From positions 1,456-65,455 of the forward strand of contig JACRIR010000130.1 of NCBI GenBank assembly GCA_016215705.1: 64,000 nt of DNA. The letters are read 5' to 3'. Positions 31,561 to 34,830 of this stretch are shown in pieces. How positions within the stretch are numbered: position 1 is the first letter of the stretch; every line of letters begins with the position of its first letter. The DNA is from Candidatus Poribacteria bacterium. Its GTDB lineage: Bacteria; Abyssobacteria; SURF-5. The translations under genes and the position numbers were made by a program. The notes beneath the pieces were generated by a model. That model had not been told where the DNA came from and searched no databases. It worked only from the letters and a program-made list of their open reading frames with translations.

Positions 31561-34500
31561 ATGAGCAAAATCACATGGCTGCATCTGTCTGATTTCCATT
31601 TCCGGACAGAAGTGAACCCCAACACAAGCAAGGTTGAGGATTTCAACAGCGAAATTGTCCTTTCGAGTCTGCTTGATGACATCAAGACCTATCCAGCCGA
31701 GAATGGGTTCAAGATCGACTTCATAATTATCACGGGCGATATCGCTTTTTCCGGACAGCAACACGAATATCGCAAAGCAGAGGAATTTTTGGATGAACTG
31801 CTCGGTGCTCTCAAACTCGGAAAGGACCGTCTTTTTGTCGTGCCGGGCAATCATGATATCGATAGAAGCAAGATCAAGAATTTCCTGAAACCCACTTTGG
31901 ACAGCGTTGATAATATCAACGGTTTCTTAATGGATAGTGAGGCGAAGGCCTTTGTATTTGGAAAGCTTCATTGCTACAAGGACTTTGTAAATAGATATTT
32001 AAAAAAGAACCTGAAATTTGACCATGAAAACAACTATTTCTGGACGAAGATTCTATCGGTTCGGGGAACAAAGGTCGGGATACTTGGCTTGAACTCGGCA
32101 TGGAATTCTTGTGGAGACAAAGACGAACGACAACTTCTGATTGGCGAAAAGCAAGTGGCCGATGCGCTGAAGCAGGCAGAAGACGCAGATTTGAGAATCG
32201 CGGCGTTTCATCATCCTTTTGATTGGCTGAGAACCGATGACAGGAAGGTGGTTAAGCGGGACCTGGCCGAGAAATGCCATTTTGTCTTGCACGGACACCT
32301 GCATGAACCCGACTATAGTCAGGAAATTATGGCGGATTCTCGTCTAGTGGTGACCATTCCCGCCGGCGCGTGCTATGACAAACGCCCGTATAGGAATTCA
32401 TACAACTATGTGAACTTCGACACAGATGCAAGAAAGGGACAGCTTCGTCTGAGAGCTTATTGTGATAAGTTGAAAGGCTGGGTGGCAGACAACGAAGTAT
32501 CGAAGAACGCCGAGGATGGTATATGCAACATTGACTTCAACATACGGACAATCAAAGAGCGACATACGCCCCGAAAGCGAGGGAAGCTCGCCGTCTCCTT
32601 GGAAATCCCTACCCAATACAGAAACTGGGTCGACACTCAGTGCGAGATACTGGATATCAAGAAACTGGTGGAAAGCAGAGACACGAAGTTAATCAACCTG
32701 GAACTTCCGCAGATATTCATACCGCTTTACACAAGCTCCCCTATTGGCAAAAGAAGGGGTAGAAGGCCTCGCCTTGACACCGACGAACAACGAGAACCAG
32801 TCGATATTGAGAAACTGGTGACTTCAAGTGATTACCTGATCATAAGGGGCCAGGCGGGTTCGGGCAAAACGACACTTATGAAGCATATGGCTTACTCCAT
32901 TATTCACGGGGGCGGCAAGTATGGACTCACCGGCTATTTGCCGATTCTGATATTCTTGAGAGACCTGCCCAAATCCGTTACGCAGAACACAGGATCGGTT
33001 CCGGGTATGGACGCAGCGGAGAAGATTCTGACTGAGTACTTTCGAAGTAAGTGTAAGTGCGAAGCACTGAGCATCGAGTTGATCGAGGCGTTTTGTCGCG
33101 AAGGCAAAGCCATATTCCTTGTTGACGGTCTCGATGAAGTCCAGCCGAAGCTTCGGGAATTCATCACTGATTCTCTGGCGGATTTCCGAAGCCCATTCAA
33201 CGCCACAACGAGTAAGATGGTCTTCTCAGGCAGACCGCACGGTATTGATGAGGCGGTTAACAGCAAGTTCCCAGGCAAGTGTGTGGATATTAACTCGCTG
33301 AATGCGGAGCAGGTGAGAGATTTCATCGAAAAATGGCTCAGGTGGGACAAGGAGTTGAAAGACAGGGCAAAGACTCCGGAAGACATGTTCGGCGAAATAT
33401 ACGGCCATCAAAGCGCTGAAGAGTTGATAAGCACGCCCCTTATGTTGACTGCCGCCTGTATTCTCTACCATTACGATAGGAAGCTGCCGGAACAGAGGGC
33501 CGAATTGTACGAGAGAATTATCAACAACCTGATATACAAGCGTTTTGAAAATCCCGTTGAAGCGCTGGACCTGTTGATGAACATAGCCTATAGGACTCAT
33601 AGCGATAAGAAAAAAGGGTTCAGCAGGAGATTTGCGCTCGACCTCATGACGCCCGAACGTCAGAAGAGAAACGACGAAACTGAACGGCAATATGATATAA
33701 GAGTAGGTGCGGAGTTTGCTCACATTGAGCAAGACTGCGGATTGCTCAGGCTCGATAAGGGAGAATACAGCTTCTGGCACTTGAGCTTTCAAGAGTTCCT
33801 GGCCGCGAGAGAGATAGCCACCCACAAGCGGGACTTCACAGGGGCCATTCAAGAATACTGGGACGATGATTGGTTCAACGAAACGCTTCGTTTGTTTATC
33901 GGTCATTTGAGCAACACGCATCCGGCCGAGGCCAACGGCATAGTGGAAGACCAACTGAGAAAAGAAGATCGATCACCTTTCAGGCATTGGCGGCAGGCGG
34001 CCAAATCGTTGCTCGATATCTACCCCGCCATGAGATACAAGCAAGTCGTCGCTAAGGCCCAAGAGTGCTTGTCGAACATAATCAAGAAAGCAGAAGACCC
34101 GAAGGTCCTGGCCGACGCCGGTGAAACGCTCGGCTGGCTGGGAGATACACGGAATCTGAAGGAGTTTGTGGAAATTCAAGGGGGCCAATACGAGTTGGAG
34201 GGACTAGGTAAAACAACTATTAAACCGTTTGAGATGGCCAAATATCCAGTAACCAATCAGTGGTATGAAGAGTTTATCAAGGCAAATGGATATAAGGAAA
34301 AGGAGTTCTGGACACCGAAAGGATGGGAATGGCTGAACGAGGGGGAATGCCAGGAGCCTTTCTACTGGCATGATCGAGCCTGGAAATGCCCGAACTCGCC
34401 GGTTGTCGGTGTCAGTTGGTATGAAGCGGAAGCTTTCTGTCGCTGGCTCACTGCAAGAAAGGATGGTTGCTCATACAGGCTGCCGACGGAACAGGAATGG

Positions 34501-34830
34501 CAGGCGGCCGCAGCCGGTAAAGAAGGGCGGGAGTATCCGTGGAAGGGCCGTTGGCGTAAGAATTGCTGCAATACAGATGAGTCCGGTATCGGCAAGACGT
34601 CAGCGGTCGGGATTTTTGCCAAAGGCACAACGCCGGAAGGTGTGGCCGATTTAGCCGGAAATGTTTGGGAGTGGACCGATAGTTGGTATGATAAGGACAA
34701 GGACGCAAAGGTGCTGCGGGGCGGCTCGTGGGGCGACGGCCGTATCTTTGCCCGGTGTGCGTTCCGTAACTGGTTCAACAGGGCCAACCGGAACTACGTC
34801 GTGGGTTTCCGCTGTGCTAGGATCAAATAA
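31561..34830 (+). CDS. DGR variable target protein: metallophosphoesterase (calcineurin-like) + NACHT/STAND P-loop NTPase + C-terminal FGE-sulfatase/C-type-lectin-fold domain
   Basis: N-terminus has MPP motifs (HLSDFHF, ITGDIAFSG, VPGNHDID, AAFHHPF, LHGHLHEP). Middle has Walker A GQAGSGKTTL and NACHT-type Walker B IFLVDGLDEV. C-terminus has FGE/SUMF motifs (YPVTNQWY, GVSWYEAEAFCRWL, RLPTEQEWQ, AGNVWEWT, RGGSW, GFRCAR). The last 112 nt form the VR of the downstream DGR. Confidence 0.85.
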   Translation: MSKITWLHLSDFHFRTEVNPNTSKVEDFNSEIVLSSLLDDIKTYPAENGFKIDFIIITGDIAFSGQQHEYRKAEEFLDELLGALKLGKDRLFVVPGNHDIDRSKIKNFLKPTLDSVDNINGFLMDSEAKAFVFGKLHCYKDFVNRYLKKNLKFDHENNYFWTKILSVRGTKVGILGLNSAWNSCGDKDERQLLIGEKQVADALKQAEDADLRIAAFHHPFDWLRTDDRKVVKRDLAEKCHFVLHGHLHEPDYSQEIMADSRLVVTIPAGACYDKRPYRNSYNYVNFDTDARKGQLRLRAYCDKLKGWVADNEVSKNAEDGICNIDFNIRTIKERHTPRKRGKLAVSLEIPTQYRNWVDTQCEILDIKKLVESRDTKLINLELPQIFIPLYTSSPIGKRRGRRPRLDTDEQREPVDIEKLVTSSDYLIIRGQAGSGKTTLMKHMAYSIIHGGGKYGLTGYLPILIFLRDLPKSVTQNTGSVPGMDAAEKILTEYFRSKCKCEALSIELIEAFCREGKAIFLVDGLDEVQPKLREFITDSLADFRSPFNATTSKMVFSGRPHGIDEAVNSKFPGKCVDINSLNAEQVRDFIEKWLRWDKELKDRAKTPEDMFGEIYGHQSAEELISTPLMLTAACILYHYDRKLPEQRAELYERIINNLIYKRFENPVEALDLLMNIAYRTHSDKKKGFSRRFALDLMTPERQKRNDETERQYDIRVGAEFAHIEQDCGLLRLDKGEYSFWHLSFQEFLAAREIATHKRDFTGAIQEYWDDDWFNETLRLFIGHLSNTHPAEANGIVEDQLRKEDRSPFRHWRQAAKSLLDIYPAMRYKQVVAKAQECLSNIIKKAEDPKVLADAGETLGWLGDTRNLKEFVEIQGGQYELEGLGKTTIKPFEMAKYPVTNQWYEEFIKANGYKEKEFWTPKGWEWLNEGECQEPFYWHDRAWKCPNSPVVGVSWYEAEAFCRWLTARKDGCSYRLPTEQEWQAAAAGKEGREYPWKGRWRKNCCNTDESGIGKTSAVGIFAKGTTPEGVADLAGNVWEWTDSWYDKDKDAKVLRGGSWGDGRIFARCAFRNWFNRANRNYVVGFRCARIK
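34711..34822 (+). other. DGR variable region (VR)
   Basis: 112-bp match to the TR at 36289-36400. All about 18 mismatches sit at positions that are adenine in the TR (AAC to GGC/GAC/ATC/TTC/GCC/TAC/GTC, AAT to TTT, AGG to TGG). Confidence 0.9.

Follow-up and report, generated by a model that had tools for sequence, protein, structure and literature searches.

Can a bacterium carry an intracellular receptor whose sensor is rewritten by a retroelement of its own? Proteins that resemble the NOD-like receptors (NLRs) of animals and are varied by diversity-generating retroelements (DGRs) have been put forward as "antigen sensors" of bacteria, most described examples being multi-gene systems of uncultured multicellular bacteria. 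The question is raised by a locus in a 64-kb stretch of contig JACRIR010000130.1 of a Candidatus Poribacteria bacterium (hereafter the window, meaning the whole 64,000 nt analyzed). Here a gene for a protein of 1089 aa (31561–34830, forward strand), delineated from its open reading frame (ORF), its Pfam domains and a structure model, joins a metallophosphoesterase (MPP) domain, a NACHT module and a C-type lectin-fold (CLec) sensor, and is followed by the components of a DGR. The interpretation advanced here, which we regard as fairly probable, is that an intact DGR diversifies an NLR-like target of the STAND class (signal transduction ATPases with numerous domains), which would act as an invader sensor with a phosphoesterase effector. 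DGR-diversified NACHT-CLec sensors and MPP-NACHT defense have each been published already; in the searchable literature, no paper was found that joins MPP-NACHT proteins of the DS-8 type to DGR targets, or that deals with DGRs in Poribacteria.

The Retroelement and Its Target

The gene is marked as a DGR target by two repeats, which, like all components of the locus described below, lie on the forward strand and were recognized by comparison with each other. The variable repeat (VR; 34709–34822) comprises codons 1050–1087, the last 38 target codons, and the template repeat (TR; 36287–36400) is 114 nt long and shares its first 37 nt with the 3' end of the reverse transcriptase (RT) gene. The two differ at 18 of 114 nt, all 18 differences fall on TR adenines and on first or second codon positions, and the non-adenine positions are 100% identical over the 114 nt. 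A preliminary description of this DNA had called the sensor hypervariable, and the restriction of every VR/TR difference to a TR adenine bears that out. This is the sole adenine-biased repeat pair within the window. The TR holds 33 adenines, with 14 AAY and three AGG codons, from which no stop codon can be reached and which allow about 10^18.5 possible peptides. Among 45 full-architecture homologues (28–54% identity), whose alignment underlies the conservation values given here, no columns of the lectin domain vary as much as those whose codons are adenine-encoded in the TR (2.93 vs. 1.66 bits, p = 1.7e-6), and the scaffold residues of that domain are fixed. This pattern suggests family-wide diversification, in which many targets would be served in trans or orphaned. 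Residue 1074 of the target (34780–34782) is an arginine with AGG as its TR codon, and is hence mutable; 41 of 42 homologues have proline at this scaffold position.

The repeats end in an identical block, GTGGGTTTCCGCTGTGCTAGGA, beyond which they diverge. A GC-rich 7-bp hairpin (GGCCGCC-GAAG-GGCGGCC; 34864–34881) lies 41 nt 3' of the VR and is kept in the DNA fold; it is a candidate target-recognition element only, and was rejected as a proven homing element, the 78-nt stretch that holds it being statistically undistinguished (z = −1.25).

The remaining components follow in close order. The Avd accessory protein (34861–35232, with the ATG at 34894 the likelier start) matches Pfam bAvd at 1.4e-17 and NCBIfam DivGenRetAVD at 106 bits (cut-off 80). 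The DGR reverse transcriptase (364 aa; 35229–36323), whose start overlaps the Avd stop, matches Pfam RVT_1 at 2.1e-28 and contains the DGR-type motifs [ILV]GxxxSQ, as IGNLTSQ at residue 198, and YxDD, as YVDD at residue 229. RT, Avd and TR are all intact. Directly 3' of the TR and still inside the inserted segment discussed below, a structured non-coding RNA with three hairpins (36401–36600) has a minimum free energy of −89 kcal/mol, with z = −5.76 and none of 200 shuffles folding as stably; the DGR RNA probably has its 3' portion here. Three of its motifs (GUCCAGG, CCGAAAC and CCCUGCUCGGGyUGGUAGC) recur 3' of the TR in an unrelated MPP-NACHT-CLec DGR (L091, 473–622), with a weaker echo in L032, and the motifs common to the window and L091 may belong to a DGR-RNA element conserved in this RT lineage. 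A structured RNA after the TR was rejected as a general feature, since seven other DGR loci gave z values of −0.6 to −1.7.

As read from its sequence, then, the locus is a complete DGR in the order target-Avd-RT-TR-structured RNA, apparently functional, and its single local target appears to be an NLR-like STAND protein. With the prototype DGR, that of Bordetella phage BPP-1 (Mtd-Avd-TR-bRT), it shares adenine-specific TR-to-VR mutagenesis, Avd, an AAY-rich TR and a CLec domain whose C-terminal end holds the VR. Unlike that system, it is chromosomal, its components run target-Avd-RT-TR, the 3' end of the RT gene being overlapped by the TR, and its target is an intracellular NTPase-effector protein and not a receptor-binding protein of the tail fiber.

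Architecture of the Target Protein

The target is identical to a protein of a Candidatus Poribacteria metagenome-assembled genome that NCBI names "SUMF1/EgtB/PvdO family nonheme iron enzyme". A full-length structure model (predicted local distance difference test score, 86.7) resolves it into an MPP domain (residues 1–325), a disordered linker, a NACHT nucleotide-binding domain (416–600), a helical and winged-helix region (601–865) and a lectin-fold domain (869–1089). The architecture set out in the preliminary description, an MPP, a NACHT and a hypervariable sensor of formylglycine-generating enzyme (FGE)/CLec type, is recovered as three Pfam domains above their gathering cut-offs, and all the motifs quoted there occur at the expected residues of the 1089-aa ORF: HLSDFHF (8), ITGDIAFSG (57), VPGNHDID (94), AAFHHPF (214) and LHGHLHEP (243) in the first domain, GQAGSGKTT (430) and FLVDGLDEV (519) in the second, and WYEAEAFCRWL (953), LPTEQEWQ (974), GNVWEWT (1033) and RGGSW (1053) in the third.

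The NACHT nucleotide-binding domain (32806–33360), with Walker A GQAGSGKTT and Walker B FLVDGLDE, scores 41 bits against Pfam NACHT over residues 425–594 (cut-off 26.7), and its residues G430, G435, K436, D522, D525, E526 and R558 are invariant among the 45 homologues. Foldseek aligns the center of the protein with NLRC4, NOD2 and NLRP3 (E of about 1e-13) over some 560–600 alignment columns. The NLRC4 and NOD2 alignments of this length also cover the region that joins NACHT to the sensor (residues 601–865; 33361–34155), identified from the model and Foldseek and modeled as all-helical with one beta hairpin. Foldseek and the model thus show a nucleotide-binding, helical and winged-helix arrangement like that of animal NLRs, in an effector-NTPase-sensor order. 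The same layout of effector, STAND NTPase and sensor, with the NLRC4/NOD2/NLRP3 fold, is found in bNACHT (Kibby et al.) and Avs (Gao et al.) proteins; the characterized sensors of those systems, however, are germline-fixed repeat or helical domains for conserved phage proteins, whereas that of the target is a small, hypermutated lectin fold.

The sensor itself (residues 869–1089; 34165–34830) scores 162 bits (2.7e-47; cut-off 23.3) against Pfam FGE-sulfatase over residues 873–1087, and matches ToxD, pFGE and EgtB in the PDB both by sequence and by fold (Foldseek). FGE carries its catalytic cysteine pair in the interval between GGSW and ARCA; by inspection, that interval of the target has no cysteine. 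Pfam detected no DinB-like domain in the target either, and the NCBI name is best taken as naming a fold. By inspection of the sequence, no 19-residue segment exceeds a hydrophobicity of 1.11, and no signal-like N-terminus or transmembrane segment is evident; because of this, the protein is predicted to be cytoplasmic, with its sensor facing the cytoplasm. The best Foldseek match of the full model is the 481-residue chain B of PDB 9a6c (9a6c_B; E of 3.7e-21), part of an integrative model of a YydD-YydB complex, which we take to be from Bacillus subtilis, with chain B presumably a metallophosphoesterase; this chain may be another relative of the target's effector clade.

The Putative Effector Domain

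The N-terminal domain (residues 1–325; 31561–32535) is a putative effector that matches Pfam Metallophos over residues 7–250 (38.6 bits, cut-off 21.5). It has the beta-sandwich MPP fold and all five MPP motifs (DxH, GD, GNH[DE], H and GHxH), and among the 45 homologues D11, H13, D60, N97, H98, H217, H218 and H248 are invariant, with H246 kept in 44. Neither an absence of the fold nor a family of homologues lacking the metal ligands was encountered, and the domain call made from the sequence motifs stands. By fold and by its HHP motif, which is typical of CpdA/Rv0805/GpdQ enzymes, the domain lies nearest to the CpdA/Rv0805/GpdQ/SMPDL3 branch, and its top structural neighbors include cyclic-nucleotide (cNMP) phosphodiesterases. 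Because both fold ranking and the HHP motif point to CpdA/Rv0805/GpdQ, a nucleotide-type substrate (a cyclic or linear nucleotide, or an NTP- or NAD-like molecule) would be favored over DNA, with a likelihood slightly above even. The class III cNMP phosphodiesterase-like enzymes (Rv0805, GpdQ, Lmo2642), SMPDL3A/B and acid sphingomyelinase are 15–22% identical to the MPP domain and, unlike the target, are free-standing or secreted, without fusion to an NTPase or sensor.

Such a ranking is set against an alternative that keeps the DGR and the sensor as described and makes the MPP domain a nuclease of Mre11/SbcD type degrading DNA (or RNA), like the nuclease effectors of Avs proteins. The domain does match the PADLOC "Endonuclease" effector model at 120 bits. 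It also matches the DS9_1 model of the DS-9A phosphoesterase (85 bits), and residues 8–294 align with positions 1–275 of NCBIfam DS8_antiphage at 164 bits, with 155 bits for the corresponding PADLOC model PDC-S60. The nuclease reading seems to us rather unlikely.

The anti-phage system DS-8 (WP_032203427.1; NF053861; PDC-S60) consists of one protein, a metallophosphatase-NACHT fusion, which protects E. coli; phage defense is lost in the mutants D52A, N84A and K375A (DefensePredictor; PMC13092281). Like DS-8, the target has an N-terminal MPP domain of the same clade followed by a NACHT P-loop core, and its residues 409–599 match DS8 positions 353–528 collinearly, though weakly (21 bits). D52, N84 and K375 of DS-8 would correspond to D60, N97 and K436 of the target by collinear position in the hidden Markov model, not by residue alignment, and this kinship points to the latter as sites for catalytic mutants. 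Unlike DS-8, the target has a DGR-rewritten FGE/CLec sensor and a Poribacteria rather than an enterobacterial host; the two share an effector-NTPase core without being orthologues. A tblastn search of plasmids and phages returned other MPP-NACHT proteins, DS-8 not being among them.

Published systems provide further points of comparison. DGR-linked FGE/CLec domains in NTPase conflict systems, together with calcineurin-type phosphoesterase effectors, have been described (Kaur et al., 2020; PMC7159879), the effector domains listed for bNACHT proteins include calcineurin-like phosphoesterases, and FGE-sulfatase sensors have been shown on defense STANDs. The DGR-diversified NACHT/nSTAND-CLec "antigen sensors" of Thiohalocapsa PB-PSB1 and of RT clade 5D include, in PB-PSB1 DGR 7, a vWA+Metallophos+NACHT+CLec target (Dore et al., 2024; PMC10907252). 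Like those sensors, the target is cytoplasmic, has NACHT at its center and the VR in a C-terminal CLec domain, and goes with a DGR that is cellular, not of a phage, and includes Avd. Unlike them, it is a stand-alone protein that begins with its MPP domain, without vWA, MoxR/VMAP partner, adaptor (EAD) domain or neighboring protease, and it is the single target of a minimal 5.5-kb cassette, in a phylum, the Poribacteria, that is not mentioned in that study (PMC10907252).

The same literature lends itself to a reading without defense, in which the protein would be a hypervariable signaling receptor whose MPP domain, as a cyclic-nucleotide phosphodiesterase, tunes a second messenger in response to an environmental, host (sponge) or kin ligand. 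The corresponding domain of the PB-PSB1 DGR 7 target has been termed a "signal transduction" 3',5'-cyclic adenosine monophosphate phosphodiesterase (Dore et al., 2024; PMC10907252), calcineurin-type domains have been classed as cyclic-nucleotide-cleaving (Kaur et al., 2020; PMC7159879), and cyanobacterial DGR targets have been interpreted as tuners of regulatory pathways (PMC7517822). This would agree with the cNMP phosphodiesterases among the structural neighbors and with a locus that lies outside any defense island. On the other hand, the nearest experimentally tested MPP-NACHT relative, DS-8, is anti-phage, TIR and further modules of conflict type replace the N-terminus on the same NACHT-CLec scaffold, a target predicted to be cytoplasmic is ill-suited to external host or kin cues, and the cassette has no gene for a cyclase or cNMP-binding partner. 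We consider a signaling role decidedly unlikely, and retain the reading of the protein as an invader sensor with a phosphoesterase effector.

Insertion of the Cassette

The preliminary description had proposed that the gene, AT-richer than its neighbors, sits on an acquired island between the gene for the E2 subunit of a 2-oxoacid dehydrogenase and a DsrE-like gene. Comparison with the closest relative found (L170; E2 89% identical in amino acids, about 90% nucleotide identity in the flanks) bears this out decisively and delimits a DGR cassette of about 5.5 kb (31135–36650) that the relative lacks: its DNA matches the window over 29528–31134 and picks up again at 36651, with only 106 nt between. 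Because L170 has the same gene order as the window (OsmC-E2-DsrE-MFS) and keeps E2 and DsrE about 250 nt apart, the 5.5 kb were inserted in the window lineage; in a more distant relative (L172, E2 75%), the gap between E2 and DsrE is 4 nt. As the cassette is missing from a relative with about 90% nucleotide identity, the insertion is also recent. No target-site duplication or attachment sites were found at its borders.

Base composition is in line with the earlier remark on AT-richness. The GC content of the cassette is 0.489, against 0.551 in the rest of the window, and it forms the lowest-GC 4.84-kb stretch of the whole 64 kb (0.485–0.49, with a window mean of 0.547). At third codon positions, GC is 0.58 in the target gene and 0.54 in the RT gene, neighboring genes lying mostly at 0.64–0.75, with a few down to 0.51–0.61.

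The repetitive extragenic palindromic (REP) elements that the same description had seen at 31173–31302 and 36754, and taken to flank the island, are present, the second at 36751–36799, but they do not serve as its borders. The 36751–36799 palindrome marks no border because it has at least 10–12 copies in the window and also occurs at the orthologous site of the cassette-free L170; the motifs at 31173–31302 were likewise rejected, being dispersed repeats too. Consensus promoters and terminators were no more numerous in the cassette than in shuffled sequence, and an Rfam scan of 31000–37300 returned only sub-threshold snoRNA noise within the DsrE-like gene.

Homologues and Their Retroelements

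By our own count, 77 of the 120 best relatives of residues 1–870 carry Metallophos, NACHT and FGE-sulfatase domains together, and MPP-NACHT-CLec relatives come from Brocadiaceae, Desulfobacterales, Chloroflexota, Pseudomonadota, Chlorobiaceae and others. The name "SUMF1/EgtB/PvdO family nonheme iron enzyme", borne by about 77 of these 120 relatives, hides the likely role of the family. A scan of genome contigs with the target returned mostly NACHT-CLec or CLec-only relatives. In close NACHT-CLec relatives the N-terminus is swapped for DUF4062, for TIR plus MPP, or for a second ATPase, and the target's MPP clade is also fused to caspase, TPR, SIR2-like and other STAND modules. An exchangeable N-terminus is the behavior of an effector module, and since N-termini exchange among NACHT-CLec relatives and the MPP clade joins other STANDs, the MPP domain would, judging from domain content, be such a module.

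Linkage to a DGR was counted in 21 full-architecture loci with usable flanks. Adenine-specific TR/VR pairs of their own occur in three further loci (22/23 in L084, 20/20 in L091 and 18/21 in L129), whose MPP-NACHT-CLec genes are 31–36% identical to the target, and an adjacent Avd or RT in two more (L085 and L086). Another RT-Avd locus (L153) is truncated behind its MPP domain and is at most a possible further case. Several homologue loci pair an MPP-NACHT-CLec gene with a KAP-NTPase-CLec gene, a pairing also found in RT clade 5D (PMC10907252).

Individual relatives illustrate how these elements are arranged. One Candidatus Poribacteria protein (P0005, 1244 aa) is 62% identical to the target over NACHT and CLec, with a second P-loop ATPase (GARGTGKTT) and a winged-helix-like region at its N-terminus in place of MPP. 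It was considered as a second target of the window TR and rejected, its VR scaffold differing at positions that are not adenine-encoded; because of this misfit it must belong to another DGR. L101 (499–7741), on a metagenomic contig, holds a tandem pair of MPP-NACHT-CLec genes, and no RT occurs within 11 kb. L085 (7505–13327) has KAP-NTPase-CLec, Avd and MPP-NACHT-CLec genes in a row on a 4.4-Mb contig, and a search of the surrounding 10 kb detected neither RT nor TR; the element is in decay, or else it relies on a distant RT. On plasmid pTs485 of Thiodictyon syntrophicum Cad16T (L088), an MPP-NACHT-CLec gene (8965–12591) has an in-frame stop at codon 91 and is annotated as two coding sequences, next to cas1/cas2 and toxin-antitoxin genes, along with an IS91 transposase and another NACHT-CLec gene. 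The host is a cultured organism, and its related locus stands in a defense-island-like setting.

Proposed Mechanism and Its Standing

In the mechanism that we propose, RT and Avd would copy the TR RNA into cDNA with adenine-specific errors, and the mutagenized cDNA would replace the VR, re-randomizing up to 17 codons of the lectin surface (about 10^18 variants). A population would thereby hold a repertoire of cytoplasmic sensors, from which self-reactive VR variants would be purged through the toxicity of the effector. A variant binding a molecule of an invader, most likely a phage protein, would free the target from autoinhibition; the NACHT module would then bind NTP and oligomerize, and the clustered N-terminal MPP domains, once activated, would cleave a phosphodiester substrate, stopping the infected cell or the infection.

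Several observations weigh against this account. In about 15 of the 21 full-architecture loci there is no RT or TR within 6–10 kb, and DGR linkage in cis is therefore not obligatory. The VR is known in one version: the 90% identity cluster of the target has one member, and a scan of metagenome contigs with an exact 37-nt pattern gave no matches. The cassette is surrounded by metabolic genes (E1/E2, OsmC, DsrE, MFS) and not by a defense island. The total DS-8 score of the target is 179.9 bits, against an equivalog cut-off of 790, with the sensor half uncovered (positions 528–994 unmatched); in PADLOC a related effector bears the label "Endonuclease", and SbcD is weakly matched as well. The MPP substrate is not known even for DS-8 (PMC13092281). 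Ligand-triggered oligomerization and phage defense are expected of the target from the behavior of its family, and we infer both its defense function and the substrate of its MPP domain.

A single known VR version, the many homologues without a local RT or TR, and the in-frame stop of the Thiodictyon plasmid homologue could also be accommodated if the cassette were a relic, a past DGR now inactive that has left a frozen sensor or a non-functional gene. All ORFs of the cassette are intact, however, and the catalytic motifs of the RT are present. The TR retains its 14 AAY codons, and it is identical to the VR at every non-adenine position over 114 nt, where neutral drift would have left differences; this speaks for recent homing. 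The insertion is itself recent, as judged from its absence in a relative with about 90% nucleotide identity. We consider a relic highly improbable.

If an intact DGR does diversify an invader sensor, the cassette might be viewed as a self-contained, horizontally mobile "programmable immune receptor", in which one gene acts as effector, switch and sensor and is continually re-randomized by its own retroelement, a formulation to which we would give somewhat less than even weight. Such a system would provide a population with an anticipatory repertoire, in which binders of new phages are selected and self-reactive variants removed by effector toxicity. It would also be the first tractable system for asking whether DGR-diversified NLR-like proteins give adaptive-like immunity, tractability being expected because the effector-NTPase core is homologous to that of DS-8, which is functional in E. 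coli. Compared with described systems, the locus is a minimal version, in which a single protein of 1089 aa, Avd, RT and TR fit into 5.5 kb with clear insertion borders. Specialists would not be surprised by its existence; its value lies in its compactness, its clean borders and its kinship to a validated effector core, which offer a practical route to the "adaptive-like immunity" hypothesis.

Dispersed Repeats and Neighboring Genes

The palindromic REP-like element present next to the cassette has the core TATTCGGGGACACCATGCGGCATGGTGTCCCCGAATA and occurs in 10–12 intergenic copies per 64 kb, about one per 5 kb, with core-containing palindromes at window positions 1344, 5464, 14223, 27666, 36742, 42188, 43429, 47728, 49952, 54332, 56021 and 59025; it may represent a REP/terminator family characteristic of this lineage of Poribacteria. 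Three dispersed short repeats accompany it: CATTCTGAGCGAAGCGAAGAATC at 10583–10662, 21438 and 31278, and also in L172 at 658–685 and 5805–5832; CGCAAAGGCGCAAAG at 29471, 31171, 54963 and 61646; and CCCCCTTTGCAAAGGGGG at 24881 and 28877.

In the operon for the 2-oxoacid dehydrogenase that flanks the cassette (27765–31150 and 36833–38569), an OsmC-like gene lies between those for E1-beta and E2. The DsrE-like gene follows E2 in both L170 and L172, and a third relative (L173) has a different gene there. The order E1a-E1b-OsmC-E2-DsrE is conserved where present, which hints at a functional tie of the dehydrogenase to redox or sulfur-carrier proteins.

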